Positions 460-58,157 of a stretch of 64,000 nt of DNA are shown here, piece after piece. Both the position numbers and the translations under genes were made by a program. Below the pieces are notes generated by a model. That model searched no databases and was not told the DNA's origin. It worked only from the letters and a program-made list of their open reading frames with translations. The stretch lies in contig NC_057753.1 in assembly GCF_004010195.1 (NCBI RefSeq), forward strand, positions 11,344,049 to 11,408,048, in the 5' to 3' direction. Each line of letters begins with the position of its first letter. The first letter of the stretch is position 1. The DNA comes from Chiloscyllium plagiosum (Eukaryota).

Positions 460-765
460 TACTGAGCATGCTCCTCGGTGTCAGTAAGGAGTGCGCATGT
501 TCGCCGGTGTCAGCAAAGCAATGCACATGCTCCTTGGTGTCCGCAGAAATGGCACGCGACCGTCTTTCCATGGGCCAATTGGAAGCCCTGGAGAACCGGA
601 AGGAGCCTGGTCTTCCTGCCAATCAGATTCCCCCCCCCACCACCCATTGTCTAAATGCGGAAGTTGGTCCCTGAGCTTCTGAAGCTGCTGCTGCTCCTCT
701 CTCTGAATGAAGATTGAGCTTCACCCCAGACTGCAACTTACTTCCTCTGTCCAACATCGGTGAGT
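460..765 (+). promoter_or_regulatory. Promoter and short first exon of ZNF-A (paralogous module, copy 1)
   Basis: CCAAT boxes (575, 619), ETS-type GCGGAAGT (657), ATG at 707, and donor CATCG|GTGAGT at 759/760. Near-identical modules lie upstream of the other two ZNF genes. Confidence 0.7.
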
Positions 766-1144
766 ACAGCACTCTCTTTTCTCACCCCCTTTTCTATTTC
801 TTTTTTTTCATTCTGGGGTTGAATTGTTGACTTGCAACAACTGAAAGGAAAGGGAGTGAATCCAGGGAGGGGACAGACCCTGGAAAAGTTGGTCCAGGTC
901 TGTGTTTCAATTAGCACAGACACAGCAAATCTAGTACCACATACTTCCTCTGTCCAACATCGGTGAGTACAACACTTACTTTTCTCACCCCCTTTTCTAT
1001 TTCTTTTTTTTCATTCTGGGGTTGAATTGTTGACTTGCAGCAACTGAAAGGAAAGGGAGTGAATCCAGGGAGGGGACAGACCCTGGAAAAGTTGGTCCAG
1101 GTCTGTGTTTCAATTAGCACAGACACAGCAAATCTAGTACCACA
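739..1144 (+). repeat. 203-bp tandem duplication containing the exon-1 splice donor
   Basis: 739-941 and 942-1144 are nearly identical; second donor at 963. Confidence 0.95.
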
Positions 1145-1216
1145 AGGTAAAGTTATAGGCTTTGCTGTGGGGAAAAAAATAAGCAGAAAGGTGCATTGTT
1201 TAAATGGTGATATATT

Positions 1217-4200
1217 GAACATAGAACATTATAACACAGTGCAGGCCCTTTGGCCCTCGTTGTGCCACCCTGTGAAATCAATCTGAAGCCCATCTAACAC
1301 GATTCCATTCTCATCCATACGCCTATTCAATGGTCATGTAAATGCCTGTAAAGATGGTGAGTCCACAACTGTTGCAGGCAGTGCGTTCCACACCCCACTA
1401 CTGAATAAGGAAACTACCTCTGACACCTGTCCTATATCTATCACCCCTCAATTTGAAGATATCTCCCCTCGTGCTAGCCATCACCATCTGAGGAAAAAGG
1501 CTCTCACTGTCCACCCAATCTAACCCTCTGATTATCTTACGTCTCAATTAAGTCACCTCTCAACCTTCTTCCCTCTAATCAAAAACATCTCGAGTCCCTC
1601 AACCTTTCCTCGTAAGACCTTCCCTCCATACCAGGCAACATCCTGGTAAATCTCCTCTGAATTCTTTCCAAAGCTTCTGCATCCTTCCTATAATGCGGTG
1701 ACCAGAACTGCATGCACTACTCGCAAGTGCTGCCACATCAGAGTTTTGTACAGCTGCCACATGGTTCCATGGTTGTGGGCGGCACGGTGGCACAGTGGTT
1801 AGCACTGCTGCCTCACAGCGCCTGAGACCCGGGTTCAATTCCCGCCTCAGGCGACTGACTGTGTGGAGTTTGCATGTTCTCCCCGTGTTTGCGTGGGTTT
1901 CCTCCGGGTGCTCCGGTTCCCTCCCACAGTCCAAAGATGTGCAGGTCAGGTGAATTGGCCATGCTAAATTACCCATAGTGTTAGGTAAAGGGGTAAATGT
2001 AGGGGTATGGGTGGGTTGCGCTTCGGCGGGTCAGTGTGGACTTGTTGGGCCGAAGGGCCTGTTTCCACACTGTAATGTAATCTTAAAAAAAAAAAACTCG
2101 ATCCCTTTACTAATAAAAACCGTATGCTGCCTTAACAGCCCTTTTAACCTGGGTGGCAACTTTGATGGATCTATGTACATGCACACCGAGATCTCTTTGC
2201 TCATCTACACCACCAAGAATCTTACCATTTGCCTGTATCCTGAATTCCTGTTACTCCTTCCAAAGGAATCACCTCACACTTTTCTTCATTAATCTCCATT
2301 TGCCACCCGTCAGCCCAGCTCTGCAGCTTCTCTCCGTCTCCCTGTGACCTACAAGATCTTTTGGCATTCTTCACAACGGTACCAACCTTCATTGTTATCC
2401 GCAGATTTACTAGCCCATCCTTCTTCACCCTCATCCATAAAATGACAAACAGCAGTGGACCCAAAGCAGATCCTTGCAGTACACCACTAATACCTGAACT
2501 CCAGGATGATCATCTCCCATCAACCACTACCCTGTGTCTTCTTTCAGCTAGTCAATTTCTGATCCAAACATTCAATCCCATGTCTCTGTATTTTCTGCAA
2601 TAGCCTACAGTGGGGAACCTTATCAAACACCTTACTGAAATCCATATACACCACATCAATGGCTTTACCCTCATCCACCTGTTTGGTCACCTTCTCAAAG
2701 AACTCAATAAGGTTTGTGAGACACAATCTCCCCTTCACAAAACCGTGTTGACTATCCCTAATCAACTTATTCCTATCGAGACGATTATAAATCCTATCTC
2801 TTATAATCTTTTCAAACACTTTACGCACAACCTAGGTAAGACTCGCGGACCTGTAATTACCGGGTTGTCTTTACTCCCCTTGAATAACGGAACAACACTT
2901 GCTATCCTCCAGCCTTCTGGTACTACTCCTGTAGACAATGACAACATAAAGATCAAAGCCAAAGGCTCGGCTATCTCCTCCATGACTTCCAAGAGAATCC
3001 TAGGATAAACCCCAACTGGCTCGGGGGATTTATCTATTTTCACACTTTCTAGAATTTCTAACACTGCCTCCTTGTGAACCTCCATCTCATCTAGTCTCGT
3101 AACCTGTTTAACAGTATTCTGCTCAACAACATTGTCTTTTTCCAGTGTTAATACTGATGAAAAATATTCATTTAGCGCTTCCCCTATTTCCTGTGACTGC
3201 AGGCACAACTTCCTGCCACTGTCCTTGATTGGCCCTAATCTTACTCAAATCATTCTTTTATCCCTTTATATATCTGTGGAAAGGATCAGGGAAAACCCGA
3301 AAGCTATCTGCCAACAACTTCTCACGTCCCCTCCTCACTCATCTCCGCTCTCTTTAGGTCTTTCCTGGCTATCTTGTAACTCAATTGCCCTAACTGAGCC
3401 TTCATATCTCATCCTAACATAAGCTTTCTTCCTCCTCTTGACAAGAGATTCAACTTCCTTAGTAAACCACGGCTCCTGCGCTTGACAACTTCTCCCTGTT
3501 TGACAGGTACATACTTATCAAGGACACACAGTAGTTGTTCCTTAAGTAAGCTCCATATTTCTATTGTGCCCATCCCCTGCAGATTCCTTCCCCATCCTAT
3601 GCATCCTAAATCGTGTCTAATTGCATCGTAATTGCCTTCTGGTCTATACCTATCCCTTTCTATTGCTAAAGGAAACTAACTGAATTGTGGTCACTATCAC
3701 CAAAGTGCTCACCTACCTCCAAATCTAATGCCTGGCCAGGTTCATTACCCAGTACTAAATCTAATGTGGCCTTGCCCCTTGTTGGCCTGTCTACATACTG
3801 TATCAGAAAACCCTCCTGCACACAATGGCCAAAAACTGATCCATCTAAAGTACTTGAACTATAGTATTCCCGGTCAATATTTGGGAAGTTGAAGTCTCTC
3901 ATAACAACTACCCTGTCACTCTTGCTCTTATCCAGAACCATCTTTGCTATCCTTTCCTCTAAATCTCTGGAACTATTTGGAGGCCTATATAAAACTCCCC
4001 AAAAGGGTGGCCTCTCCTTTCTATTTTCTAATCTCAGCCCATACTACCTCAATTGATGAGTCCTCAAACGTCCTTTCTGCAGCCGTAATATCGTACTGGA
4101 CTAACAGTGTCACACCCCCACCTCTTTTACCATCTTCTGTATTCTTACCCCTCTGGTTTAGGTGTAGACCATCCTGTTTGTAGAGGTCCCACCTACCCAG

Positions 4201-4460
4201 AAACAGCCTCAATTATTGAGTAATCCAAATCTCCTTCCCCCGCCCCATTCCTGTAGCCACATGTTCAACTGCTCTCTCACGAGCACGTGGCATGGGCAAC
4301 AAGCTAGAGATAACAACTGTTTGTCTGAGGTCTAAGCTGCCACCCTTGCTCCCTGAATCTTTGCCTTAAACCCCCATCTCTCGCCCTGTCTGTCGTTGGT
4401 GCCTATGTGGACCACTACTTGGGCTGCTCCCCCTCCCCTGCAAGGATCCTGAAAACATGA
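1217..4460 (-). mobile_element. Degenerate, long CR1-clade LINE (ORF1 esterase remnant, APE endonuclease, RT)
   Basis: Broken ORFs carry DGLHLN (4021-4212), DFNFPNID/LDLVLGNE/SDHN (3666-3941), SQHGFVKGR/YMDFSKVFDKVPH (2544-2828). Confidence 0.85.
1777..2096 (+). mobile_element. HE1/V-SINE-type tRNA-derived SINE nested in the CR1
   Basis: A-box TGGCACAGTGG, B-box GGTTCAATTCC, V-domain-like TGTGTGGAGTTTGCATGTTCTCCCCGTG, and a 3' tail. Confidence 0.9.
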
Positions 4461-5699
4461 TCATAGAACATAGAACATAGAACATAGAAGAATACAGCGC
4501 AGTACAGGCCCTTGGGCCCTCGATGTTGCGCCGATCCAAGCCCACCCAAACTACACTAACCCACTATCCTCCATATACCTATCCAATGCCCTCTTAAATG
4601 CCCATAAAGAGGGAGAGTCCCCCCCCCCCCCCCCAACAACAGTATCCAAAATGGTATACTTGTTGAGGGGATGTGGAGAAAGTGAGGGCTGCAGATCAGA
4701 GTCGAAAGGTGTGGCGCTGGAAAAGCACCTCAGGTCAGACAGTATCAGAGGAGCAGGAGAGTCGCTGTTTCAGGCCCTTCAGGAATGATGTGTGGATGTA
4801 CAAAGGGGCCTCAGCGTCCTTCTACACCAGTCACTGCCAGTTGTCAGACAGGTACAGCAAGCAATCAGCAAGGCAAGTGGTCTGTTGGGAAGAGGTATTG
4901 AGTTGAGAAGTGGGAATGTCTTCCTGCAGTTAGGGGGTCATTGAATATCTCCAAGACTGAGTTCATTTGATTTTTGAACAACAAAGAAGTGGATGGTTGA
5001 GGGAAGGCAAGAAAATGGTTTTAAGACCAATACAGAACAGTTACAGAAACAGACCCTTCAGTCCAACTCGTCCCTGCTGACTGGTCCTCAAACTAAAGTA
5101 GACCTACGAGCCTGTGTTTAGCCCATATCCCTCCGAACCTTTCCTATTCACGTACTTATCTAAATGTTTTTTAAACATTTTAACTGTAGCTGCATCCACC
5201 ACTTTCGCTAGACATCCATTCAACTCGTGAACCACTCTGCATGAAAAAAGGTGCCCCTCGTGTCTTTTTAAAATCTTTCTCCTGCCACCTTCAAAATTTG
5301 CTCCAAATCTTGAAACCCCCCACCCTAAGGGCAGAGGACATCTGCCATTCACCTCCCCTATATCCCACATGATTTTTAATGGTCTATAAGGTCACACCTC
5401 AACCTCCTAGGCTGGGAATTTTTTCACTGGAGCATATCTCTCTGGCTGAAGAGGTTTCTCCTTCTCTCCATTCTGAAAGGTCTTCCCCTTACTCCAAGAC
5501 TGTATCCTCATCCTCAGGTCCTGGTCTCTGCTGCTAATGGAAACATCCTCCCAACATCCACTCTGTCCAGGCCGTTCTGTCTGCTTCAATTAAATCCCCC
5601 CCCCCGCCCACCAAACCGAGTGTGGCCCTGTTCATTAGCATGAACCAGCCCCTTCAGGATGAGGTACAGCAGGGATTAGGTTCAGCAAAGTGAGGGTCC

Positions 5700-6970
5700 G
5701 AGGTGTGGCAGGTGAAGTTTAATTTAGATAAATGAGGTGTTGCATTTTGGAGACATAAATTGTACAATATAGGATGTAGACAGTTAATGGGAATGTTGCA
5801 GAGCAAAGAGACCTTGCAGTGCAGGTTCATAGTTCCTTGAAAGTACAGTTGCAGATAGATAGGATAGTGAAGAAGACGTTTGGTATGCTTGCCTTTATTG
5901 GTCAGTATATTCAGTATAGGAATGGTGGTCACAGCGGCTGGACATTACATTGATTAGGCCACTTTTGAATACTGCGTTCAGTTCTGGTCACCGTGACAGG
6001 AAAGATGTTGCAAAACTTTGAAAGCATTTGGAGAAGACTTACAAGGTTGTTGCCAGAGTTGGAGGGTTTGAGTAATAGGAAGAGGCTGAATAGGCTGGGG
6101 CTGTTTTCCCTGGAGCATCGGAGGCTGAGGGGTGACTTTATACAAGCTCATAAGGGCCATGGATAGGGTGAAGAGCTGAAATCTTTTCTCCTGAGTAGGG
6201 GAGTCCAAACCTAGAGAGTATAGGTTAGAGGGGAAGGATTTAAAAGGGACCTGAGGGGCAACCTTTTCGTGCAGAGGGTGGTGCGTGTATGAAATGAGCT
6301 TCCAAATGAAGTGGTGGGGGCTGGTACAATTATAACATTTTAAAAAGCATCTGGATTAAATTTGAATAGGAAGGGTTCAGTGATATGGGCCAAATGCTGG
6401 CAAATGGGAGTAGATTACTTTCGGATATCTGGTCAGCATGGACGAGTTGAACTGAATGATCTCTTTCTGTGCTGTGTGACTAATAGTCTTTGGTGAAAGC
6501 AGATGTGTCATTGCAAAGACTGGACTTTCAGAGCAGTTTTCAAAGATGCTTTGCCCTTACTGGGAGCGGAAGGAGTTACAATGAAACCTTTCATTTGTGA
6601 GACAGCAACCTTAGAGGTCTCTCAAAATTGAGGGGCATGGATAGGGTAAATAGGCAAAGTATTTTCCCTGGGGTCAGAGTCCAGAACTGGAGGGCATAGG
6701 TTTAGGGTGAAAGGGAAAGATATAAAAGAGACCTAAGGGGCAACTTTTTCAGTGGTAAATGTATGGAATGAGCTGCCAGAGGAAGTGGTGGAGGCTACTG
6801 TAACAATTGCACCTTTAAGAGGCATTTGGATGGGTATATGAATAGGAAGGGTTTGGAGGAATATGGGCCGGGTGCTGGCAGGTGGGACTAGATTGGGTTG
6901 GGATATCTGGTTGGCATGGACGGGTTGGACCGAAGGATCTGTTTCCATGCTGTACGACTCTCTATGACTG
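5700..6970 (+). mobile_element. CR1-type LINE 3' fragments (two)
   Basis: Matches the recurrent CR1 3' end (GGCTGAGGGGTGACC...GGGCAACTTTTTC...GGACCGAAGG) seen throughout the window. Confidence 0.8.
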
Positions 6971-7255
6971 AGTGAGCAAGCATATCTGGGATTTTAGTGG
7001 AAATTGGGAATTCATTGCACTGTGGGGGTGAAGTGCTCTAAGGTTTACCAACAGTAAGTAAAGTTTGCTGAGTGGGGACCCAGTGAGGGGTTAGGTGGGT
7101 TTTTGTTTTAAACTGCCCATTTCTTTCAGCCTCCAACACTGTTTCCAATGCTGGGCATCAGAGGGAGCGGTGAATCAGTAACTGGTATCGATGGAAGCCT
7201 TACAATTCTCAGTGCTGTAGGTATTGCGTTGTTTCATCAGCATTGTAAATGTTAC

Positions 7256-7912
7256 TGTCACGAGAAATGATTAAGCAGATAGATAACACAAATACGAGGG
7301 CAGGGTGGGACTGAGGATCTGAAATCTGAATACAGGTTGTTAGGAGCAACCATTTAATACATGCTCTTACTAACATAAGCAGCAACAAAATGGCTTCTTA
7401 TTGCACGTAACATGACAATATGGCTCAAATCGACAATTCTGCTTAAAAGCTGTATAAAATGGCTTTTAACCCTACTAAAAGCTGCATTCCGGATTTAACC
7501 ATTGTGTGCTTTAGCAAAGATTAGCAGACAATGCTTCCTTTGCAGCATAGAAATAACTAGACATGATAAGATATTACTAGCCATCCTAACTGATCTTGCA
7601 AGTGCAGATGCGGTGCTTAGATGTGTAAAGCAAGGTTGGTTCCCAGGAAATATCTTTGGGTTAAGTTGCTGTCAATAATGTCATTTTATTAAATTTGATT
7701 GGTAATTGTTTGAATCTGCTGTGTAATTGTGGCTGTACTTTTCAAAAAAGATATAAAAATGTCTTTGTCTTAAGCCATGTGTGCAGTTTCTCTGAGGGAC
7801 ACAGAAGTGTTTAACCTCTGTTGCTAGACAACCAGTACCTGGCCGTAAAATAAAGTGTGAAATCTTACAGAACCAGTCTGAATTGCTAGTGTTTATTGAC
7901 TGATTGTGGAAC
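7256..7912 (+). mobile_element. Candidate solo LTR
   Basis: TG start (7256 or 7338), TATAAA near 7753, AATAAA near 7849, ends GGAACA at 7912. No TSD found. Confidence 0.4.
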
Positions 7913-10229
7913 AGAGAGATTAGATTACTTAGTGTGGAAACAGGCCCTTCGGCCCAACAAGTCCACAACGACCCACCGAAGCGCAACCCACCCAGACCCA
8001 TTCCCCTAATGCTACGGGCAATTTAGCATGGTCAGTTCATCTAACCTGCACATTTTTGGATTGTGGGAAGAAACCCACGCAAACACGGGGAGAATGTGCA
8101 AACTCCACACAGTCTCGGGAATGGAACCCGGGTCTCTGGTGCTGAGGCAGCGGTGCTAACCACTGCATGCCACCATGCCAGGGGAGTCCAGATCTTCAGG
8201 ATCTTGTCGATTGATTTGCAGAAGGTGGGTGGCTCTGGGTGCTGTGATCCAGGGCAAGTACAACTGCGGTAAATCTCCGAAGCCCTATAGTGTGGAAGCA
8301 GGCCATTCGGCTCATCAGGTCCACACTGACCCCCCTCCGAAAAGCATGCCAAAAATAAAACCCTGTCCTCCATTGATCTCCCTGTTCCCACAGAGTAAGA
8401 TATCGGTCTGTTCTCAGCTCGGTTGGATTTCTGCTGAAGCTTTGACCCCCTTTTTACACCTTCCAGAACAATAAAACATTTAGTCGGTCAGGACCGAACC
8501 TTCAGTCTCCCAGCCTGTCAGCGATCCAGGCAGTGTCATTGTGGTGGGGAATAAAACAAGAAAAATGAAACAAAATTAGAAATAAATGCTCGGTTGGTGT
8601 TTGTGGTTAATGTTTATTCATTAGAAAGTAAACCAGAAATAGGGGTCTCCCAGGATTCTTATATGCCCGATGTGAGGAATTCTCTCTCCCTTACATCTAA
8701 GTAATAGTACTGAGCTATGATTTATAACAATACAGTATTTACATTAATAGAAATACATCATCTGTTAACAAATAGACAGCAAGATATGTAGACAGGCCAA
8801 CAAGAGGTGAGGCCATACTGGATTTGGTTCTGGGTAACGAACCAGGCCAGGTGTTAGAATTAGAGGTAGGTGAGCACTTTGGGGATAGTGACCATAATTC
8901 GGTGATTTTTACACTCGTGATGGAGAGGGAAAAGTGTGTACTACAGGGCAAGAGTTAAACCTGGGGTCAGGGAAATTATGATGCGGTGAGCCATGACTTA
9001 GGATGTGGACCTTGCAAGTGCAGATGCGGAAAATAGTGTCGGGAGATAAAGGTGCTTGGATGTGTAAAGCAAGGTTGGTTCCCAAGAAATATCATTGGGT
9101 TATGCTGCTTTCAAAAAAGATATAAAAATGTCTTTGTCTTAAGCCATGTGCGCAGTTTCTCTGAGGGACACAGAAGTGTTTAACCTCTGTTGCTAGACAA
9201 CCAGTACCTGGCCGTAAAATAAAGTGTGAAATCTTACAGAACCAGTCTGAATTGCTAGTGTTTATTGACTGACTGACTGGCCGTAAAATAAAGTGTGAAA
9301 TCTTACAGAACCAGTCTGAATTGCTAGTGTTTATTGTGGAACAGAGAGATTAGATTACTTAGTGTGGAAACAGGCCCTTCGGCCCAACAAGTCCACACCG
9401 ACCCACCGAAGCGCAACCCACCCAGACCCATTCCCCTAACGCTACAGGCAATTTAGCATGGTCAGTTCATCTAACCTGCACATTTTTGGACTGTGGGAAG
9501 AAACCCACGCAAACACGGGGAGAATGTGCAAACTCCACACAGTCTCGGGAATGGAACCCGGGTCTCTGGTGCTGAGGCAGCGGTGCTAACCACTGCGTGC
9601 CACCATGCCAGGGGAGTCCAGATCTTCAGGATCTTGTCGATTGATTTGCAGAAGGTGGGTGGTTCTGGGTGCTGTGATCCAGGGCAAGTACAACTGCGGT
9701 AAATCTCCGAAGCCCTACAGTGTGGAAGCAGGCCATTTGGCTCATCAGGTCCACACTGACCCCCTCCGAAAAGCATGCCAAAAAAAAACACTGTCCTCCA
9801 TTGATCTCCCTGTTCCCACAGAGTAAGATGTTGGTCTGTTCTCAGCTCGGTTGGATTTCTGCTGAAGCTTTGACCCCCTTTTTACACCTTCCAGAGCAAT
9901 AAAACATTTAGTCGGTCAGGACCCAACCCAGAGTCTTCCAGCCTGTCAGTGATCCAGACACAGAATGTCATTGTGGTGGGGAATAAAACAAGAAAAGTGA
10001 AACAAAATTAGAAATAAATGCTCGGTTGGTGTTTGTGGTTAGTGTTTTAGGTTAATGTTTATTCATTAGAAAGTAAACCAGAAATAGGGGTCTCCCAGGA
10101 TTCTTATATGCCCGATGTGAGGAATTCTCTCTCCCTTGCATCTAAGTAATAGTACTGAGCTATGATTTATAACAATACAGTATTTACATTATGTATTTCT
10201 ATTAATCTGTTATCAAATAGACATCGAGA
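7595..10229 (+). repeat. ~1.2-kb direct segmental duplication (7595-8788 / 9011-10229) separated by a CR1 endonuclease fragment
   Basis: Long near-identical runs, including the same HE1 SINE (ORFs 8063-8272 and 9493-9702 translate identically). Confidence 0.95.
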
Positions 10230-10647
10230 TATACAGCACTGAAAGACTTTTTGATCTAACATATCCATGCAGACAAGGTGTTAATCTAGTTACATTTGCC
10301 AGCATTTAGCCCATATCCGTACAACCCTTCCTATTCACATACCCATCCAGATGCCTTTTAAATGTAATTGTACCGGCCACTTCCTCTGGCAGCTCGTTCT
10401 GTACACGCACCACTAGCTGTGTAAAAATGTTGCCGCTTAGATCCCTTTTAAATGGTTCCCCTCCCTCGCCTAAACCTCTGGTTTTGGACACCCCCACCCT
10501 GGAGAAAAGACCTTGCCTATTTACTTTATCCATGCCCCTCATGATTTCATCAAGTTTTATAAGGTCACCCCTCCACCTCTGATGCTCCAGGAAAACAGCT
10601 CTTTCGTATTCAGCCTCTACTTATACCACAACTCTCCAACCCAGTCA

Positions 10648-10925
10648 GGGTGGCATGGTGGCTCAGTGGTCAGCACTGCTGCCTCACAGCGCCAGGGACC
10701 CAGGTTTTATTCCAGCTTCTGGCGACTGTCTGTGTGGAGTTTGCACATTCTCAGTGTCTGCGTGGGTTTCCTCTGGGTGCTCTGGTTTCCTCCCACAGTC
10801 CCAAAATGTGCAGGAAAGGTGAATTGGTCATGCTGAATTGCCCGTAGTGTTAGGTGCATTAGCTAGGAGGAGTGGGTCTGGGTGGACAAGTTGGGCTGAA
10901 GGGCCTGTTTCCACACTGTAGGGAA
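10648..10925 (+). mobile_element. HE1-type SINE
   Basis: GGTGGCTCAGTGGTCAGCACTGC head, V-domain-like core, GGGCCTGTTTCCACACTGTAG tail. Confidence 0.85.
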
Positions 10926-12054
10926 GCTAGTCAAAAAGCCCTGGTGACATCCTTCTCAATCTCTTCTGCACCCTTTCAAATTTCACAACATCCTTCCTAT
11001 CCTCTAGCAGGGAGACCAGTATCAAATGAAATATTCCAAAAGTGGCCTAACGAATGTCCTGTACGGCTGCAATCCAATGCAATCGATGGGACAAAGACCC
11101 TCTTTCTGCACTGCAAGGATTTTGTGACTTTATTCTGTGTCCCAGTCAATTTTAGTCACTATCTCTGGTGTATGGTTTGTCAAGATGGGATCACTGGTAC
11201 CAGCATTGCACACAATACTCCAAAAAGAAGCCTAACTCATTTCCTGTACAGCCACAACATGATCTCCCAACTGACCAATAAAGTCAAGTGTACCAAACAT
11301 CTTTCACTATCCTGTCTAATTGCGACTCTACTTTCAAGGAACTATGAACCTGCCAGATGAGTCATTCAGCATGAAACAGACCTTCGGTCCAACCAGTCCA
11401 TGCCAACCATAATCCCAAATTAAACTAGTCACACCAGCCTGCTGCTGACCTTTTCTCCCTATTCACATACTTGTCCACATGGCTTTTAATTGTACCCTCA
11501 TCCACCACTTCCTCAGGAAGTTCATTCCACGCATGAATCACCCTTGAGAACATGGAACAATACAGCATGGAACAGGCCCTTCGGCCCACGATGTTGTACT
11601 GAACATTTGTCCTAGCTTAAGCACCCATCCATGTACCTATCCAATTGCCGCTTAAAGATCGCCAATGATTCTGACTCTGCCACTCCCACAGGCAGCGCAT
11701 TCCATGCCCCCACCACACTCTGGGTAAAGAACCTACCTCTGACATCCCCCCTATACCTTCCACCCTTCACCTTTAAATTTATGTCCCCTTGTAACACTGT
11801 GTAAAATTAGTATTTGAACGGCTAGGATGAGGTTGAATTGAAATGGTTCATAAAATAAACAGTTTCTCCCAAACCCCCGACAGCAGCTATGGTAGCACCT
11901 CCAACTCTGGGTCTTCCCCTCCCCATGTGCTTCAGCTGCAGGGCAGCACAGGCCCACTGCCTGCCCTGCCCCCATTGATCCATTGTGATGTCACAATGCG
12001 GAGGTAGCCCTGTCAGTTTCAGAGTGAAACTCCCTCCCTCCCTCTGGGCAACAT

Positions 12055-12885
12055 GGAATCCCTATAGTGTGGAAACAGGCCCTTTGGCCCAGCAAGTCCA
12101 CACCGACCCTCCAAAGGATATCCCACTCAGACCCATTCCCCTATTATTCTACATTTACCCCTGACTAATGCACCTAACCTAGACATCCCTGAACACTATG
12201 GGGCAATTTAGCATGGTCAATTCACCTAATTTGCATATCTTTGAATTGTGGGAGGAAACTGGAGCAAACCCACGCAGACATGGGGAGAATGTGCAAACTC
12301 CACACAGGCAGTCGCCTGAGGCTGGAATTGAACCCGGGTCCCTGATGCTGTGAGACAGCAGTGCTAACCACTGAGACACCGTGCTATCGTCCATTTGGGA
12401 GCAAAGCAATGTCTCCCCTTTCCATTCCTCATCCTGAGAGAGAGATTGGCACTCTGATATAAAATGTAGACACATGTTGCTTCATATGGTGTATATCTGA
12501 TATTGTTGGCTGTTGTAAAAGCTTCTTTGCAATTATTCTTCTAATTACCTTGTAAAGTAGTAATGGATTTTTTTAGATTAGATTTCCTACAGTGTGGAAA
12601 CAGGCCCTTCAGCCCAACCAGTCCACACCGACCCTCCGAGTAACCCACCCAGACCCATCTCCCTCTGACTAATGCACCTAACACTATGGGCAATTTAGCA
12701 CGGCCAATTCACCTGACTTGCACATTTTTGGATTGTGGGAGGAAACCAGAGCACCCGGAGGAAACCCACGCGGACACAAGGAGAATGTGCAAACTCCACA
12801 CAGACAGTCACCCGAGGCTGGAATCAAACCTGGGACCCTGGTGCTGTCAGGCAATATTGCTAACCACTGAGCCACCGTGCTGCCC
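12055..12885 (-). mobile_element. Two HE1-type SINEs (12055-12384, ~12575-12885)
   Basis: Reverse-complement HE1 head, core and tail motifs. Confidence 0.85.
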
Positions 12886-13565
12886 ATGTAATGGAGTTAC
12901 ATATTGTATTTCTTGTCTTTTTTTTAATTTAATAGAACAGCAGGAAGTCATTCAGCAACTTTACTGACTTTCTTTTCTCAAGTAGCCTTGACATTTCATT
13001 ATCATGTCCCTGATTCAGCTCCATTGCCAGCACCTTTTGTAGGAAGGTTGTCCCAGGTCATTGTCACCTAAATGACGTTTTCCTCCATTCACACCTAAGA
13101 CTATCTGGCTGCATGAGGGTTTTCTGGTTTCTGTATGCTGGGTAATATGTGATCAGCAGGCATCGGGCAATCTATAGCAATTGCCAACTATGTTATGTTA
13201 ATTTAAGTGTACTGATGGTTGTCACTTACGTTGTGAAGTTTTTTTGCAGGCAGACATGCGGAAAGAAATCTGAAAGCAATTGCTACATCGACTTTTGATG
13301 GAACCACTTGATTCATTGGAACTTGAATATCAGCAGCCATTCAAATCGAGAAGAAATGTCTGTTTGAGATTTTGGATGCTGGTGTGGCAGGAAGAATACT
13401 GAGATACCCGAGTGAGGGAGATTCGGTGTGCTGACTGTGAAAAGTGCTTCAAACCATTTACTCAGTTTGGAGGAATCAAAATCTCACCCCTCATGGTGGG
13501 GAAAGACTGTGTACCCGTTCTGTTTGTAATTTCAAACCCAGAGTGACACAAGGAAAGCTCTCCCC

Positions 13566-14432
13566 ATGGGGAAACCGTGGAAATGTGGGGAATGTGGGAA
13601 AGGATTCCCTTCCCCCTCGGTGCTGGAAATGCACAGACGCGTTCACACCGGGGAGAGGCCATTCACCTGCTGTGTGTGTGGGAAGGGATTCAGTGATGTG
13701 AGCAACCTGCGGAAACACGAGCGGGTCCACACGGGAGAGAAGCCCTACACATGCTTGGTGTGCGGGAAGGGGTTCGCTCAGTCAGCTGCCCTGCTGATCC
13801 ACAAGCGGGTCCACACAGGGGAGAGGCCGTTCTCCTGCCCTGAGTGTGGGATGACCTTTCGTCATGTGAGCAACATGCGGAAGCACGAGCGTGTCCACAC
13901 GGGGGAACGGCCCTACAGGTGCCCCGACTGCGGGAAGGGGTTTGCTTGCTCGGCTAACCTGCTGATCCACCAGCGGGTCCACACGGGGGAGAGGCCGTAC
14001 ACCTGCTCAGAGTGCGGGAAGGGATTCATTGATTCTTCAAGCCTGCAGACCCACAAGCGGGTCCACACGGGGGAGAAGCCATTCACCTGCCCTGACTGCG
14101 GGAGGGACTTCAGTCACGCGGGCAACTTGCGGAAGCATCAGTGGGTCCACACCGGGGAGAGGCCATTCACTTGCTCCGAGTGCGGGAAGGGATTCATTGA
14201 TTCTTCTGGCCTGCTGACCCACCAGCGGGTCCACACCGGGGAGAGGCCATTTGTCTGCTCCGAGTGCGGGAAGGGATTCATCGATTCTTCCAGCCTGCTG
14301 ACCCACCAGTGGGTCCACACTGGGGAGAGGCCGCTCACCTGCTCTCAGTGCGGGAAGAGATTCACCAGCTCCTCCCACCTGCGGAGGCACCAGCGAGTTC
14401 ACGTGCCATCACAGGGGGGATTGAAGGAGTGA
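13566..14432 (+). CDS. ZNF-A: tandem C2H2 zinc-finger protein, 288 aa, 10 fingers, no KRAB/SCAN/BTB domain
   Basis: Intact ORF with 10 C-x2-C-x12-H-x3-H units and TGE[R/K]P linkers. Acceptor TTTTTTTGCAG|G at 13249/13250; AATAAA at 14995. Confidence 0.93.
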
Positions 14433-19959: not shown

Positions 19960-20760
19960 CTCCCGCCTTTTTTATCCCAGATTGGCAATTGGACACAAAA
20001 CCTGTCAGTCACACCCAGCGCCGGCTGCCATTGGTCAGGTGGAGTACGGTGCGTTCTGATTGGAGGGGGCGCGGATGACGCGCGTCACTGCAGGAGGAGA
20101 CGTAAAGTAGAAGAAAAACAAAGATGGCGGCGCGAGGTGGATGGAGGTGACAGGTCGGAGCGGAGGCTGAAGCCCTCTCCACCAATCCCAACACCTGCGG
20201 TCAGTGCGGACTAATCGGAGAGCGACATTCGGCGGGGTGGGGTGGGACAAACGGCGACCGCAAAGTCGGCTGCCATTGGTCAGGTGGAGTAAGGTGTTTT
20301 CTGATTGGATGGGGGCGCGGATGACGCGCGTCACTGAAGGAGGAGACGGAATGGAGAAGAAAAACAAAGATGGCGGCGCGAGGCTGCGGTTTTCTCATCG
20401 ACTCAGCGGGCGGTTTCTGACGGAGGGAGGGGGGGCAGACAGGCACCGTTTACCTCAGAAAATACCTTTAAAATACATTTCAAATTGAAGCCGGAACTTT
20501 CCGAACGAAAGTTGTGAAGAAAAGGAGACGGTCCCCGGTGGGGTTTATTGTTTATTTGTGTATAATTCCCGGGGCCCGGGAAGGGGGAGGTGACGGTTAC
20601 CGGGTGAACGAGGAAAACAAATTAAAAATGTCGGCGGTGGAGGAGAGGGAGCCGGCGCCCCGCGGCTTCCGGAGCCCAGGAGCTCAACAACCCCCCCGGA
20701 GCTGGAGGAGGGTCCGAGCTCCAAGAAGCGGGGGGTCCGGCTGGAGGCTGGATTTGCTCA
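19960..20760 (+). promoter_or_regulatory. CpG-island promoter with a duplicated CCAAT / TGACGCGCGTCA / YY1 module; target gene not identified
   Basis: Dense CpG. Module copies at 20022-20137 and 20267-20383, each with two ATTGG, a 12-bp palindrome and AAGATGGCGGC. Confidence 0.7.
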
Positions 20761-20869
20761 AGGCTTGTATCTATTAACTTATTTAAATGGTACCTACTGT
20801 GTATGGGGCTGTGGTTTACATTAAAACCGGAGGGTCCTGTCAGAGTGTTTGTTTATATTGAGCAGGTGT

Positions 20870-22125
20870 AGTCGGTGAAATACAAGATCCGGAGATGCCG
20901 GTGTTGGACTGGGGTGTACAAGGTTAAAGATCATTCCTGAGGAAGGGCTCATGCCCGAAACGTCGATTCTCCTGCTCCCTGGACGCTGCCTGACCTGCTG
21001 CGCTTTTTCCAGCAACACATTTTCAGCCAGGTTAAAGATCACACGGCACCAGGTTATAGTCCCCAACAGGTTTCCCGATTCCTCCGCCCTCCTGCAAAAA
21101 TGCCATCCCGTATTCCCCGATTCCTCCGCCTCCGCCGTATCTGCTCCCTTGGAGGACCGGTTCCACCACAGAACACACCAGATGGCCGCCTCCTCCTCCT
21201 CCTCCTCCTTCAGAGACCGCAGTTTCCCTTCCCACGTGGTTAAAGATGCCCTCCGACGCATCTCGTCCACATCCCGCACCTCCGCCCTCACACCCCACCC
21301 CTCCAACCCGTAACGAGGACAGGACGCCCCCGGTGCTCACCTTCCACCCTGCAAACCTCCGCATAAACCAAATCATCCGCCGACATTTCCGCCACCTCCA
21401 AACAGACCCCACCCACCAGGGATATATTTCCCTCCCCACCCCTTTNNNNNNNNNNNNNNNNNNNNNNNNNNNNNNNNNNNNNNNNNNNNNNNNNNNNNNN
21501 NNNNNNNNNNNNNNNNNNNNNNNNNNNNNNNNNNNNNNNNNNNNNNNNNNNNNNNNNNNNNNNNNNNNNNNNNNNNNNNNNNNNNNNNNNNNNNNNNNNN
21601 NNNNNNNNNNNNNNNNNNNNNNNNNNNNNNNNNNNNNNNNNNNNNNNNNNNNNNNNNNNNNNNNNNNNNNNNNNNNNNNNNNNNNNNNNNNNNNNNNNNN
21701 NNNNNNNNNNNNNNNNNNNNNNNNNNNNNNNNNNNNNNNNNNNNNNNNNNNNNNNNNNNTGTCCCCATGACTTGTCCTACCTGCCTATCTTCTTTTCCAC
21801 CTATCCACTCCCCCTCCTCTCAACCTATCACCTTCATCCCACCTCCATCCACCCATTGTACTCATTGCTACCTTCCCTCCTCTCCTCCCTGACCTATCAC
21901 CTTCATCCCCATCCCCACTCACCTATTGTACTCTATGTTACTTTCTCCCCACCCTCCTCTCCTTTATCTCTCCACCCTTCAGGCACTCTGCCTGTATTCC
22001 TGATGAAGGGCTTTTGCCCGAAACATCGAGTTTACTGCTCCTTGGATGCTGCCTGAACTGCTGTTCTTTTCCAGCACCACTAATCCAGAACACTAGCTTT
22101 CGGAGCGTCGCTCTTTCATCAGTGG
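20870..22125 (+). mobile_element. Nested Penelope-like fragments and hammerhead cassettes spanning an assembly gap
   Basis: PLE-like translations (FRDRSFPSHVV, PPVLTFHP...IIRRHFRHLQTDP). Hammerhead motifs at 20937 (+), ~22000 (+) and 22092-22123 (-). Confidence 0.75.
21446..21759. other. Assembly gap (N)
   Basis: Run of N. Confidence 1.
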
Positions 22126-22879
22126 AGGAGCATCTTCTATGATGCTGCATTTCCTGCCTTCTGCCCTTCCCCCATTTGTTATCTTGATTTTAAACTTTTT
22201 CTTAAGTCAAATTTAATCTCATTTTAATCAGACTTGGTGTGCTATTAGCTTGTTTGTCAGACTAGTGTAAGACAAAATTTAAGGTGAAACTTCATTTCTG
22301 ATGAAGTCAGAGTTTGACATTGAATGCGCAGGTGTGAATACCATTAAGTTGTGAAAATAAATCAAGAGCTTGTGCCTTTAACAAAAAAAAAGCAGTTCAC
22401 TGATATTCATGGCTTTGTCTCATTTCAGGGTGCTGATTCAAGTCTGACCAACAAACCGTTTCATCCCATCACCCAATTTAATTAAAATCTTTTAGAAAAT
22501 AACTCTGGCAAGCTAAGATTTATCCAATTTATTTAAAAGATTTATTTATGTGTCAGTTGCTCTCCATGTGGTCTTCTCTGCATTGGGGAGACTGGACGCC
22601 AACTTGCGGAATGTTTGTGGAACACCTCTGGGACATCTGAACTAAATGATCCCACCGCCCGGTGGCTGAACACTTTAACTACCCCTCCCACTCAGACAAG
22701 GACATGAGTCCTGCGCTGCCTCCATCACCAAACTCAAGCTACCTGACACCTGAAGGAAGTACACTTCATCTTCTGTTATGGGACCCTCCAACACATGGGA
22801 TCAATATAGATTTCACCAGTTTCCTCATTTCCACTCTCTCCCTCCCGCTCCCCATTAACAAGCTTTAGTAATGGACTCA

Positions 22880-25800
22880 CCAAAGTATGGGATCTGGTAA
22901 TATTGCCATCTCTGATCATGCTCCAGTGTACCTCATGGTTAAGATTAAGGATGTTACAGTGGATTCAAGGTACTGGCGAATGGACCCCTTTATTCTCATG
23001 GACAGTAAGTTTGTGGAGTATTTTTCTAGGGAATTTCGGGCATTCCTAGACATAGGCTCGGTTGATAGCTCATCTGTTCTCTGGGAAACTGCCAAAGCTT
23101 ATGCCAGGGGGTTAGTTATTTCATATTCCACAAGTAGGAAGCGGCAGAAGGGTGAGCAGCAACGTCTCCTTGAAGCAAGGTTGAAGGCAGCTGAGAAGGC
23201 CAATTTTGACAGACCCTCGTTGGTCAAACTACAGAGGATTACGGCACTGCGGTCTGCACTAAATTTCGTGCACATGCAGATGGCAAAGAAGGAGCTGGCT
23301 TTTGAAAAGCAAAGGTTATATGAGCATGGTGACAAGCCAGGCAAATAATTAGCGTACCTTGCCAGAAAGAGAAATGCCCCACAAACCATTACAGCGATTA
23401 GGGAAGGGTCTGGGAACCTGACATGTGATTCTAAAAAGATTAATGTGGCGTTCCAGAGATTCTACTCTAAGTTATATCTGTCTGAGAATTGTGAGGAGGG
23501 ACAGGCCAAAATGGAATCCTTTTTTTAGAGATCTGAAGCTCCCGGGTATGACTCCCGAACAACAGTCCTTTCTCAATGCCCCATTATCACAGCAAGAAGT
23601 GCAGGAAGCTGTGAGGCAGCTTCAGAATGGAAAGGTGCCCGGTCCTGATGGACTTCCCAGTGAATTCTATAAGGAATTTATAAGTATACTGTCAGGCCCG
23701 ATGCTGAATATGTTTACTGATTCATACAGTCCTGGTTGTCTCCCACCATCTCTGAGAGAGGCCAATATTTCACTTATTCTTAAAAAAGGGAAGGATCCGG
23801 AAGACTGTGCTTCGTACAGGCCCATCTCGCTGTTAAATGTGGACTTTAAGATCCTCTGTAAGGCTCTAGCGTTAAGGCTGGAGACTGTGTTGCCCTCTAT
23901 TATTAAAGAGGATCAGACGGGCTTCATAAAGGGTCGCAGATCTTCTAATAACGTTAGGAGGCTGCTTAACGTAATTCAAGCCTGCCAACAGCAGTCAATA
24001 CAGGGATTGGTGATTTCTTTAGATGCAGAGAAGGCATTTGACCGAGTTGAGTGGCCATACCTTTTCTATACTCTAGACCGGTTTGGTCTGGGCGAAGTTT
24101 TCAAAAGATGGGTAAAGGTTCTCTACAGTGTACCTCTCGCTGCGGTAATTACCAACGGGGTACGATCAAGCAATTTTAATATTTCTCGGGGCAGCAGGCA
24201 GGACTGTCCCCTTTCACCATTATTTTTTACGTTGGTGATTGAACCGTTGGCAGAGGCCATTCGTGGGGATCTCAATATATCAGCTCCAGAAGTGGGGTCA
24301 AAATTACATAAGATCTCGCTGTATGCAGACGATGTTCTAATTTTCTTGACAAATCCATAAGTTTCAGCTGATACAATGCATTCACACGTTTGGTGCTTTT
24401 TCAGGGTATAAGATTAATTTTGCTAAATCAGAGGCTTTGCCTATGGGTGGTCTTACGAAAGACATGGCTCTTGAGAGTGACTATAGATTCCCATTTAGAT
24501 GGTCACAGGGGGGTTTTGTGTATTTGGGCATATTCATTTCTCCAGGGCTTCATTCCTGAAGAAGGGCTTATGCCCGAAACGTCGATTCCCCTGTTCCTTG
24601 GAAGCTGCCTGACCTGCTGCGCTTTTCCAGCAACACATTTTCAGCTCTGATCTCCAGCATCTGCAGTCCTCACTTTCTCCTCGGACATTAAAAATTACCA
24701 ATTAAGCTCGCTTTTAACCTACGTGAGTGATTGGGTTTGTGGGGACCCTTTTTCAATATGGCTAGATATCGAAGCCTCCCAGGCAAGGTGCCCCCTTACC
24801 AGTTTGCTGTTTTTGGACAAGATGAGTTAGGAAATATTGCCATAACCCAATAGTCATCAATACTGTTAAAGCATGGAGGGCAATTCGGCAGAGGGAACGC
24901 AATATTGGCAAAACATCTTTGTTTACACCTTTAGTGGGTATGCCGGGTTTTCAACCGGGTATGATAGATTCAGGATTTAAACGTTGGGCAGCTAGGAGTA
25001 TATCTTACATGGAGTATATCTTACATATATCATTCCTGAAGAAGGGCTTATGCCCGAAACATCAATTCTCTTGTTCCCTGGATGCTGCCTGACCTGCTGC
25101 GCTTTTCCAGCAACACATTTCCAGCTCTGTATATCTTACATGGGTGATTTATTTGAAGGAGATATAATGATGTCCTTCGATCAGTTAGTACGGAAGTACG
25201 AGTTACCTAATAGAGACCTCTTTCGTTTTTTTCAAGTTAGGGATTTTATTCAAAAAAAGACCACACTTTTGACTGATCCCTACAAATCTGACATAGGAAG
25301 AGGGGTACTAAGGGCTAAGAGTACACCCTCTGTCAGTACTTTATATCACCAATTGGGGGGTGCCACCTCAGATGAGTCTGATCGACTGTGCAAGATGTGG
25401 GAAAGACAGCTGGGTGTTGAAGTTTCTTCAGAGGCATGGGAGGATATTTGGGAGAATGCAAGGAAGATATCAATTTGCAATAGGACCCATGTTTTACAGT
25501 TGAAGATTCTCCACTTAGCCCCAGACTGTTTGTCAAAATTTAAACCAGGGGTATCTTCAGCATGTCGCAAGTGCAAGGTCTGCACGAGTACTCCTACCCA
25601 TTGTCTTTGGTCTTGTGACAGGCTTCAAACATATTGGAGCGCTGTGGTGGGTGCAATGGGGAGGATTTTAGGTTAGGGGTGGAGAAGGACCCTATTTCGC
25701 TCCTTTTGGGCCTACCCATTGTATTTCCTGCAGACTCGCATAAGAAAAAACCTTTCAATATTCTTACGTTCTGTGCAAGGAAGAATATCTTGCTCGGTTG

Positions 25801-33641: not shown

Positions 33642-35003
33642 TCAATTTCCCTGCGATGGCGCGTGAACTCGCTGGTGTCTCTGGAGGTGGGAGGAGCGGG
33701 TGAAGCCTTTTCCGCACACGGAGCAGGTGAATGGCCTCTCCCCGGTGTGGACCCGCTGGTGAGTCAGCAGGCTGGAAGAATTGATAAATCCCTTCCCACA
33801 CACGGGGCAGGTGAACGGCCTCTCCCCTGTGTGGACTCGCTCATGCTGCCGTAAATTGCCCACATGACTGAAGCCCTTCCCGCACACAGAGCAGGTGAAC
33901 GGCCTCTCCCCGGTGTGGACCCGCCAGTGGGTCTGCAGGCCAGAAGAATCAAGGAATCCCTTCCCGCACTCTGGGCAGGTGAATGGCCTCTCCCCGGTGT
34001 GGACCCGCTGGTGGGTCAGCAGCCCGGAAGAATCAAGGAATCCCTTCCCGCACTCTGGGCAAGTGAACGGCCTCTCCCCGGTGTGGACCCGCTGGTGGGT
34101 CAGCAGCCCGGAAGAATCAAGGAATCCCTTCCCGCACTCTGGGCAGGTGAATGGCCTCTCCCCGGTGTGGACCCGACGGTGGGTCTGCAGGCCAGAAGAA
34201 TCAAGGAATCCCTTCCCGCACTCTGGGCAAGTGAACGGCCTCTCCCCCGTGTGGACCCGCTCGTGATTCCGCAAGTTGCGCAGATGATGGAATCTCTTCC
34301 CACACTCGGTGCAGGTGTACGGCCTCTCCCCAGTGTGGAGCCGCTGGTGCTTCCGCAGGTCGCCCACATGACGGAAGGCCTTTCCGCACTGGGGGCAAGT
34401 GAACGGCTTCTCCCCCGTGTGGACCCGCTGGTGCATCCGCAGATTGCCGACATTACGGAATGCCTTCCCGCACTCGGGGCAGGTGAAGGGCCTCTCCCCC
34501 GTGTGGATCCGCTCGTGATTACGCAGGTCACTCATCTGACTGAACCCCTGCCCGCACTCGGGGCACCTGAAGGGCCTCTCCCCCGTGTGCACCCGCTCGT
34601 GCTTCCGCAAGTTGCTCGTACGACGGAAAGCCTTCCCGCACTCGGAGCAAGTGAACGGCCTCTCCCCAGTGTGGATCCGCTTGTGGATCAGCAGTGTAGA
34701 TGAATGAGCGAACCTCTTCCCGCATACCAAGCACGTGAAGGGCTTCTCTCCAGTGTGGACCCGCTGGTGTGCCCTCAGGTTGGAAGAATTCGCGAATCCC
34801 TTCCCGCACACTGAGCAGGTGAACGGCTTCTCCCCGGTGTGAACCCGCTGGTGTGTCTGCAGCTGAGACAACTGAATGAATCCTTTCCCGCAACAGTGGC
34901 AGACAAACGGCTTCTCCCCGGTGTGAACACGTCTGTGAATTTCCAGCACCGAAGGGGAAGGGAACCCTTTCCCACAGTCCCCACATTTCCACGGTTTCTC
35001 CAT
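33642..35003 (-). CDS. ZNF-B: tandem C2H2 zinc-finger protein, 453 aa, 16 fingers, no effector domain
   Basis: Intact ORF starting MEKPWKC. Acceptor TTTGCAG|G at 35322/35321; AATAAA at 33084-33079. 5' and 3' flanks are homologous to ZNF-A. Confidence 0.93.
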
Positions 35004-35589
35004 GGGGAGAGCTTTCCTTGTGTCACTCTGGGTTTGAAATTACAAGCAGAACGGGTACACGGTCTCTCCCCACCGTGAGGGGTGAGATTTTGATTCCCCC
35101 AAGCTGAGTAAATGGTTTGAAGCACTTTTCACAGACAGCGCACCGAATCTCCCTCACTCGGGTGTCTCCGTATTCTTCCTGCTGCACCATCTCTCAAGCA
35201 GACCAAAGCAAACATTTCCTCTCAACTTGAATGGCTGCTGATATTCAAGTTCCAATGAATCAAGGAGCTCTGTCAGAAGTTGATGGATCAATTGCTTTCA
35301 AGTTTCTTTCCGCAGGTCTTCCTGCAAATATAAATTCACAAAATAAGTGATCACTGTCAGTACAGTTAAATTAACATAATACAGGTGGCAATTCCTGTAG
35401 ATTGCCAGATGCCTGCTGATCACATTATCCAGGACACAGAAACCTGAAAACCCTCATGCAGCCAGATCGCCTTAAGTGTGTATGGAGGAAATCTTCATTT
35501 AGGTGACAATGACCTGGAATAAGCTGAATCAAGGTGTGAAAATAAAATATCAAGACTGGTTGCAGAAAGAAAGCCAGTAAAGTTGCTGA

Positions 35590-39470: not shown

Positions 39471-39903
39471 CCAATAGGAAAGGCTCAGAGGGATATGGGC
39501 TAAACACAGGCAGGTGGGTATACTTTAGTTTGAGAACATAGTCAGCATGGTCAAGTCAGACTAAAGGGTTTGTTTTTGTAAAAGGTCTCCAAACCTTTTT
39601 CTTGCCTTCCCCTATAACCATCCACTTCTTTGTTGTTCAAAATTCAGATGAACTCAGCCTTGGATATATTCCATGACCCCCTAACTGCAGGAAGACATTC
39701 CCACTTCTCAACTCAATTACTCTTGCTAACAGACCACTTGCCTTGCTGATTGCTTGTTGCACCTGTCTGACAACTGGCAGTGACTGGTGTAGAAGGACAC
39801 CGAGGCCCCTTTGTACATCCACACACCATTCCTAATGAAGGGCTCGTGCCCATAACGTCAATTCTCCTGCATTTGCCTTGTGTTTTTCAACTGAGACACA
39901 GAC

Positions 39904-40012
39904 CTGGGTTCACTCTCCCAGGGTCTGTCCCCTCCCTGGGTTCACTCTCCCAGGGTCTGTCCCCTCCCTGGATTCACTCTCCCAGAGTCTGTCCCCTCCC
40001 TGGATTCACTCC
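39904..40012 (+). repeat. 32-bp minisatellite, ~3.4 copies, in ZNF-B intron 1
   Basis: CTGG(G/A)TTCACTCTCCCAG(G/A)GTCTGTCCCCTCC at 39904, 39936, 39968, partial at 40000. Confidence 0.95.
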
Positions 40013-40085: not shown

Positions 40086-40380
40086 ACTCACCGATGTTGG
40101 ACAGAGGACGGAAGTTGCAGTCTGGGGTGAAGCTCAATCTTCATTCAGAGAGAGAGGAGCAGGAGCAGAAGCTCATGGACCAACTTCCGCATCCAGACTG
40201 TGGGTTTAATGTGATTGGCAGGAGGACCAGTCTCCATCCGGTCCTCCCATTGGTCCAGCGAAACAAAGTCGTGGGGCGTTTCCGTGTGTTACATGAGCAT
40301 GCGCAGTGTTTTGCTGACACCGAGTTGTGGCTGCTGACACCGAGTAGCATGCGCAGTATGGAGATGCTGGTATTACTGAC
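40086..40380 (-). promoter_or_regulatory. Promoter and first exon of ZNF-B (module copy 2)
   Basis: Two NRF1-like GCATGCGCA, two CCAAT, GCGGAAGT, ATG at 40144, donor CATCG|GTGAGT at 40092/40091. Confidence 0.75.
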
Positions 40381-42615: not shown

Positions 42616-43029
42616 GAACATAGAAAGGTACAGCACAGCATAGAACAGGCCCTTTGGCCCACAATATTGTACCGAGGATTAATCCTAATATAAAATAAAA
42701 TAACTTAACCTACGCAGCCCTCAATTCACTGCTGTCCATGTGCATGTCCAGCAGTCGCTTAAATGTCCCCAATGACTCTGCTTCCACCACCACAGCTGGC
42801 AACGCATTCCATGCATTCACAACTCTCTGCATAAAGAACCTACCTCTGATGCCCCCTCTATACCTCTCCACTAATATCTTAAAACTATGACCCCTCGTGC
42901 CAGTCAATCCTGCCCCAATCTCTGGCTATTGACTCTATCTATTCCACTCATTATCTTGTATATCTCAAATCAGGTCACCCCTCTTCCTCCTTCTCTTCAG
43001 AGAGAAAAGTCCGAGCTTATCAAAGAGTA

Positions 43030-43305: not shown

Positions 43306-43377
43306 TAGCAGAAGATGCTTTCGATCCATCGACCTCTGGGTTATAGGCCCAGCAGACCTCCGCTGCACCACTCTGCT
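43306..43377 (-). tRNA. Initiator tRNA-Met-derived copy, probable pseudogene, anticodon CAT changed to TAT
   Basis: Minus strand reads AGCAGAGTGGTGCAGCGGAGGTCTGCTGGGCCTATAACCCAGAGGTCGATGGATCGAAAGCATCTTCTGCTA: 72 nt, 7 differences from the conserved vertebrate tRNAiMet as I recall it. Confidence 0.85.
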
Positions 43378-46436: not shown

Positions 46437-46789
46437 TTTCCCCAGGGTAGTGGAGTCCAGAACTAGAGGTTATAATGTTCAGGTGAGATTTAACAGGGAC
46501 CCAAGGGGTGGCGCGTGTGTGGAACGAGTTGCCAGAGGAAGTGCAGGATAGAAATTCATAACAGACTGTTCTAGTCCAGGAACATCTATGCCCTCTCTCA
46601 TTCACTAAAAGCTATAAAGCTCCATCCCACACCCTCTTCCCTCCATTCTCACTCTGCTGTACCTAATATCCCTCCCCATTCTCCTGCAGGGTCTGACTGA
46701 CAGACCCACACTCACCTCCTTCCCATCCTGGATACACAGTGTATGAATTATAACCAATCATGTTTCAGTAGAGCATAATAAAAGGAGCA

Positions 46790-57234: not shown

Positions 57235-58149
<915 letters not shown>

Positions 58150-58157
<8 letters not shown>

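Follow-up and report, generated by a model that had tools for sequence, protein, structure and literature searches.

A near-invariant upstream exon of tandem zinc-finger genes in Chiloscyllium plagiosum may be a promoter and first-exon DNA element rather than a new protein domain

Why would neighbouring shark zinc-finger (ZNF) genes keep, upstream of the exons that encode their fingers, the same small exon with an ATG at the same place? The question is raised by a 64,000-nucleotide (nt) stretch of Chiloscyllium plagiosum DNA (contig NC_057753.1, positions 11,344,049 to 11,408,048; hereafter the window, within which all coordinates are given) that holds three tandem C2H2-ZNF genes, here called A, B and C. 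An earlier note on this DNA had described the exon and proposed that it encodes a family-wide regulatory upstream open reading frame (uORF) or micropeptide, or that it is the relic of an N-terminal effector exon. On balance, we read it instead as a paralogous core-promoter and first-exon DNA element whose uORF is incidental or leaky, and not as a new protein domain.

In all three genes an ATG precedes a GT donor by 53 nt on the strand of the fingers (ATGs at 707, 40144 and 61306), as had been reported:

707-759, plus strand: gene A upstream ATG to predicted donor, 17 codons and 2 nt, then GTGAGT
40092-40144, minus strand: gene B upstream ATG (40144) to predicted donor, then GTGAGT
61254-61306, minus strand: gene C upstream ATG (61306) to predicted donor, then GTGAGC

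The three 17-codon peptides likewise read as the earlier note wrote them, without insertions or deletions (indels); an indel-free exon is weak evidence, as it has a probability of about 0.44 by chance at the indel rate of the A/B exon-2 leader. Joined to predicted acceptors at 13250, 35321 and 59590, which are T/C-rich runs terminating in CAG, the frames give the 33, 28 and 78 amino acids (aa) previously claimed and end short of the finger ATGs at 13566, 35003 and 59247. Overlooked at the time was an in-frame TGA that lies immediately 5' of the ATG in every copy. The ATG stands in a weak context, with TGA before it, T at -3 and, where the finger ATGs carry G, A at +4. The start site, exon use and junctions of the three genes are predictions from sequence.

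The exon proves to be the best-kept part of a larger cassette of ~330 nt, composed of promoter-like sequence, exon and intron, that is common to four copies. This four-copy homology, which had escaped the earlier note, reaches ~130 nt 5' of the ATG and ~150-200 nt into the intron, with a shared order of two CCAAT boxes (about -130 to -70), a GCGGA motif (-43 to -50), a pyrimidine run, the exon and an intron segment. We take GCGGA, or GCGGAAG, to be an ETS-type site; this and the other factor names are labels assigned by likeness to consensus sites. NRF1-like repeats lie further 5' of gene A (463-546). The relevant parts, including those of a fourth copy, D, are:

567-706, plus strand: gene A promoter-like part, two CCAAT boxes (-132 and -88 from the ATG), ETS-like GCGGAAG at -50, pyrimidine run before the ATG
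698-739, plus strand: near-invariant 42-nt core as it lies in gene A (-9 to +32), 38 of 42 columns identical in four copies, non-coding bases included
50220-50512, minus strand: cassette copy D, which retains the promoter motifs and the ATG (50396) but has lost the donor by deletion and diverges in the 3' half of the exon
46544-46668, minus strand: D downstream remnant, like the gene C pre-acceptor intron (70.5%, expectation value (E) 2.5e-9)

Comparison with the flanks shows how sharply the conservation is focused. Between A and C, 1 of 53 exon positions differs against 56 of 210 in the flanks (p=1e-5), and between A and B the figures are 2 of 53 and 30 of 210 (p=0.035); the exon is thus more constrained than its flanking sequence, as the earlier note had supposed. 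Its further observation that the exon-2 leader of gene C is the more diverged also holds: C against A gives 206 matches, 79 mismatches and 30 gaps, and B against A gives 282, 32 and 5. Shuffling the sequence 100 times gives 0.00 occurrences of a 21-nt core on average, and the window itself has four. All four copies also retain a second ATG, at -45 to -52, in a frame that is not preserved. Because that ATG is retained while its frame shifts, conserved ATGs in this cassette can stem from conserved DNA motifs.

Several more specific interpretations of the conserved block were tried. A conserved stop-start pair involving the second ATG was dropped, since it is in frame in just two of the four copies. 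A ZNF143 SBS1 site within the exon was likewise dropped, with 9 of 18 positions agreeing by eye with the probe printed in PMC3627581. A stable conserved RNA fold was not supported (z-scores 0.88, -1.35, 1.03 and -0.09), Rfam yielded three matches with E 0.46-0.63, all far under the gathering score, and DNA patterns of the module matched 0 loci in metagenome and viral contigs, collections not expected to contain this animal.

Copy D, which the earlier note had not spotted, keeps the core despite having lost its donor, and we count this in favour of a DNA element. Its downstream remnant lies ~3.7 kb 3' of it, and at that place a dispersed repeat stands where exon 2 should be. Because the pre-acceptor remnant leads into this repeat and not into exon 2, D, as its sequence reads, is probably a dead paralog. 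It could nonetheless act as an alternative promoter for gene B, 10 kb further on. The ESM Atlas held no usable match for the 63-aa open reading frame (ORF) of D. A purine-rich intron patch is common to the gene B intron (37510-37583), the D remnant (46544-46668) and the gene C pre-acceptor region (59609-59733), all on the minus strand and 70-78% alike.

As the one copy of four without a finger exon of its own, D is also what one would expect if the cassette were a dispersed repeat, such as a transposon remnant, loosely tied to ZNF genes. We consider this extremely improbable: the other three copies each face a same-strand finger exon, even D is followed by a paralogous pre-acceptor remnant, and no terminal inverted repeats were found at the four copies. 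The proposed linkage of the module to ZNF genes accordingly stands, with three intact genes and one relic. For 'family-wide', the basis is four copies, all of which come from one window.

Does the constraint act on codons or on nucleotides? The dN/dS comparison that the earlier note had proposed covers the 16 codons after the ATG, with 11.7 silent and 36.3 replacement sites. The three changes among A, B and C are two replacements (Thr/Pro and Leu/Pro) and one silent change; D adds two replacements in codons 2-11, bringing replacements to four of five changes where the neutral expectation is 0.76. The few residue changes are mostly to or from proline, and this low-power test gives no sign of protein selection. 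The silent sites are as fixed as the replacement sites. A and C differ at 0 of 11.7 silent sites in the exon vs 71 of 193 (pS 0.37) in the finger arrays (p=0.009), B and C differ at 1 of 11.7 (p=0.066), and the third positions of codons 2-10 are invariant over the four copies (9 of 9). Because silent sites and non-coding bases are frozen too, the constraint on the exon looks to be at the nucleotide level and not the product of protein selection. The idea of a conserved micropeptide or effector is therefore not sustained, given also that the frames past exon 1 are out of register and that the peptide has no protein match, both described below. Selection at the nucleotide level or gene conversion would each explain why the ATG persists, why its spacing stays at 53 nt and why indels are missing.

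If the paralogs had recently undergone short-tract gene conversion or exchanged exons, the result would be a homogenised core of no special function. Silent and replacement sites are indeed equally homogenised in a region prone to local duplication, and the exon of A is nearer that of C (1 difference) than that of B (2), whereas elsewhere A is much nearer B. Yet the same ~40-nt peak recurs in four copies lying 10-60 kb apart and in both orientations, between flanks that differ by 15-35%, and conversion alone is not expected to hit the identical short tract every time. We therefore judge conversion as the sole cause to be very unlikely.

The second exons bear on what the upstream ATG once meant. 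Each begins with a leader that separates the predicted acceptor from the finger ATG:

13250-13565, plus strand: gene A exon-2 leader, predicted acceptor 13250, uORF stop ending at 13298, decayed finger remnants, five more ATGs
35004-35321, minus strand: gene B exon-2 leader, predicted acceptor 35321, decayed fingers matching those of gene C at E 3e-5, two further ATGs
59248-59590, minus strand: gene C exon-2 leader, predicted acceptor 59590, decayed fingers matching those of gene B at E 7e-5, free of further ATGs

The remnants in the gene A leader reach E 0.004, and those in all three leaders are frameshifted. Because the leaders are decayed fingers, the ancestral protein must have been longer, with its start further 5' in exon 2 or in exon 1. 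The start of exon 2 in gene C is homologous to those of A and B (scores 66 and 67 vs shuffled maxima of 38 and 40); from there on, the alignment to A/B slips by 13 nt and then by 1 nt, and the mismatches show no codon-position bias (19/25/22 and 19/19/18 by position). Neither a conserved reading frame nor a conserved stop position was found, the lengths being 33, 28 and 78 aa and the register of C differing from that of A/B, and beyond codon 18 the predicted A, B and C peptides are no family.

These leaders keep alive the possibility that the exon is a relic of a longer ancestral protein, or its first coding exon where other paralogs have kept it in frame; such a protein would have consisted of a short N-terminal exon, a spacer and fingers, much like FiNZ-ZNF or KRAB-ZNF proteins. 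An older start upstream of the decayed fingers would fit such a history, and the two-exon layout is that of FZNF genes (PMC10547256). The upstream ATG shares the finger frame modulo 3 in two of the three genes, and the upstream frame of gene C runs through 60 exon-2 codons without a stop. However, agreement in two of three genes has a chance probability of 0.26, and with the predicted acceptors the upstream ATG runs stop-free into the fingers in none of the three (stops after 33, 28 and 78 aa). Alternative acceptors that would give an in-frame, stop-free join were rejected, as the only ones are poor AGs right before the finger Met.

Known proteins were compared as well. A 19-position profile built from the four copies, whose power reaches E 1e-7 to 1e-9 for an identical peptide in proteins of up to 600 aa, matched 0 of 1,835,955,588 protein representatives at E 0.001 and 0 of 121 comparison proteins; the negative is limited in that the clustering of the representatives at 50% identity is driven by fingers, and it is uncertain how well cartilaginous fishes are covered. 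A word-index search with the first 60 residues of gene B returned 7640 generic ZNFs, with one named as a skate protein among the 120 listed. The same search scored none of 15 candidates for the 60-aa exon-2 frame of gene C, and returned a single candidate, without a score, for the N-terminal 42 residues of gene C. A skate ZNF model (P0029) does have an open N-terminal extension ahead of a similar first finger, as the relic reading would predict, but the exon-1 peptide is not like the skate N-terminus (p=0.70) and the gene C frame is not significantly like it either. Homology to the skate spacer was set aside, with one of nine frame comparisons at p=0.036, which is not significant after nine tests. 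At 17-18 aa, with one acidic and three K/R residues, the peptide is also unlike the 28-aa, Glu-rich FiNZ. In agreement with the earlier note, which had called these genes KRAB-less, a KRAB box was not detected in the window with a profile built from 51 KRAB boxes (best E 0.44 among 858 six-frame pieces), a profile that matches 86 of the 121 comparison proteins.

We regard the relic reading as quite unlikely. The same grade of doubt attaches to a broader proposal, namely that elasmobranch tandem ZNFs have a small effector exon of their own at the N-terminus, the third such solution next to KRAB and FiNZ. In many paralogs elsewhere it would be in frame, and in this cluster it would have become a family-wide uORF once the leading fingers had decayed and translation began further downstream. 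Were a relic or in-frame history true, the exon would be a candidate for a KRAB-independent effector that silences transposons in cartilaginous fishes.

A different possibility is that the uORF itself is selected as a family-wide translational brake, for which the ATG and its position matter and the peptide does not. Such a brake would lower the ribosome load on stall-prone finger arrays, and the exon-junction mark would be cleared without decay. The ATG is present in all four copies at a fixed donor distance in the three intact genes, and the three predicted stops lie in the last exon, well 5' of the main ATG. Moreover, PMC11620358 describes how translation of tandem C2H2 arrays in zebrafish leads to ribosome collisions and mRNA decay, and how blocking initiation stabilises those mRNAs. 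A brake would leave the frozen silent sites and upstream non-coding bases unexplained, its ATG context is weak, and the differing numbers of further leader ATGs (five in A, two in B, none in C) indicate that upstream ATG content is not tightly tuned. We see this as an unlikely contender.

The reading that we favour, a DNA element with an incidental or leaky uORF, would work as follows. The four copies show a putative promoter and a predicted short first exon shared by the members of one duplicated family of tandem C2H2-ZNF genes, and their linkage to three genes and one relic shows that this block was copied along with each gene duplication. The geometry of CCAAT and ETS-type motifs would put the transcription start near the pyrimidine run. 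Transcription would begin there, with the core spanning about -10 to +35 and followed by a strong donor, and the 40-70-nt core may combine an initiator and a downstream core-promoter or factor-binding element with an exon-definition signal. The protein would begin at the finger Met in exon 2. With the upstream ATG weak and probably near the cap, most ribosomes would scan past it; those that do initiate would cross the junction, make a short non-conserved peptide and stop in the last exon, leaving gaps to the main ATG of 267 nt (A), 284 nt (B) and 159 nt (C). By analogy with uORFs in general, reinitiation at the finger Met would then be possible. At most, the frame would be an ordinary damping uORF whose peptide sequence is irrelevant.

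A number of points weigh against this reading. The codon test is weak with three to five substitutions and rejects neither an omega of 1 nor one of 0.2 (for omega 0.2, P=0.33 with A-C alone and 0.075 with D). Short-tract gene conversion would freeze silent sites as well. The A-B exon (2 of 53) does not differ significantly from the A/B exon-2 leader (32 of 314; p=0.2), and the compared segments were picked after the alignment had been viewed. The observed-to-expected (o/e) CpG ratio near the exons is only 0.47-0.53. Finally, the decayed leader fingers demand an older upstream start, and the peptide search has the limits given above.

The region is prone to local duplication, and in gene A the earlier note had overlooked a tandem one:

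736-1141, plus strand: 203-bp tandem duplication in gene A, 98% identical, repeating the 3' end of exon 1 and the donor (second, identical donor at 963)

The duplication leaves a third donor-like site at 1147. Splicing of gene A from the second donor would leave the frame with its stop in the TGA of the first donor, 200 nt ahead of the junction, and the transcript would likely be a target of nonsense-mediated decay. Also in gene A, a 14-nt imperfect inverted repeat (723-736 and 806-819) pairs exon 1 with the intron over the donor; no such repeat across the donor was found in B, C or D. Further into the gene A intron, a local duplication of ~950 bp (7839-8787 and 9277-10232) is 93.7% identical. 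In the first intron of gene B, a 32-bp unit repeated 3.4 times (39903-40011) is built from part of the conserved intron segment.

The finger genes themselves are as follows:

13566-14432, plus strand: gene A finger ORF, 10 C2H2 fingers
33642-35003, minus strand: gene B finger ORF, 16 C2H2 fingers
58150-59247, minus strand: gene C finger ORF, 12-13 C2H2 fingers, ending at a repeat insertion

All three are tandem C2H2-ZNF genes, with fingers on a single exon each, canonical HTGE[KR]P linkers and Pfam zf-C2H2 and zf-H2C2_2 matches far over the cut-off. In a scan of the finger ORFs, SCAN was not within the best 25 Pfam families listed for each. From the finger Met onward, the gene B protein is identical to an ESM Atlas entry, which fits a gene B model beginning there and is no proof of protein production; an exact look-up against a protein collection matched 0 of 4 window proteins. 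The gene C array is broken by a repeat at 57803-58159 (minus strand) that is 73% like 61773-62130 and 22553-22841. Frameshifted gene C fingers go on beyond it (57218-57778, minus strand), and because they lie past the interrupting repeat, gene C is read as truncated by insertion.

Elsewhere in the window, reverse-transcriptase fragments of retroelement remnants lie at 23422-24357 (plus strand; Pfam RVT_1, E 8.5e-30) and 42005-42709 (minus strand; E 7.7e-6, under the cut-off). A weak tRNA-like match at 43306-43377 (minus strand, 32.1 bits) is possibly the head of a short interspersed element. A CpG-island-like stretch at 20001-22000 (o/e 0.93-1.06) adjoins an assembly gap at 21446-21759.

How does the shark cassette compare with known systems? 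Sequence-independent regulatory uORFs are typically short frames in a weak context that end upstream of the main start with room for reinitiation. The frame described here, itself a predicted one, is likewise short and weak in context with room to reinitiate, but the conservation at the DNA level is stronger than a uORF alone would need. With tetrapod KRAB-ZNF genes the cluster shares its tandem C2H2 arrays and HTGE[KR]P linkers. We found no paper dealing with how the 5' parts of shark tandem ZNF genes are built; the supplements of PMC10547256 may cover cartilaginous-fish ZNFs, and PMC11603059 covers KRAB-like and FiNZ proteins plus TRIM33. If the reading that we favour is correct, the cassette marks a candidate shared regulatory element, and a single probe, primer or morpholino could be enough to annotate many members of the family, count them or knock them down, following the zebrafish example.

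Two fish families come closest. FiNZ is a 28-aa, Glu-rich domain encoded on one exon 5' of the finger exon (PMC10547256), and cyprinid FiNZ-ZNF genes, which belong to a lineage without KRAB-ZNFs, resemble the shark genes in combining a small upstream exon with one finger-array exon (PMC10547256). FiNZ is in frame with the fingers, however, whereas the 17-18-aa exon peptide, with its single acidic residue, is unconnected in frame and shows no sign of protein-level constraint. The znf genes of zebrafish chromosome 4 have highly conserved 5' ends and 5' untranslated regions (UTRs), to the extent that one morpholino targets the 5' UTR of >200 genes (PMC6370886, PMC11620358). There the conserved UTR precedes a coding FiNZ exon, whereas here the ATG frame of the conserved block stops before the fingers; the likeness drawn here is one of description. 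In both, the 5' segment of the transcript, predicted in the shark, is nearly the same from one tandem-ZNF paralog to the next. Such family-wide conservation is thus already known for 5' ends in fish tandem-ZNF genes, and the shark cassette looks like another instance of it.

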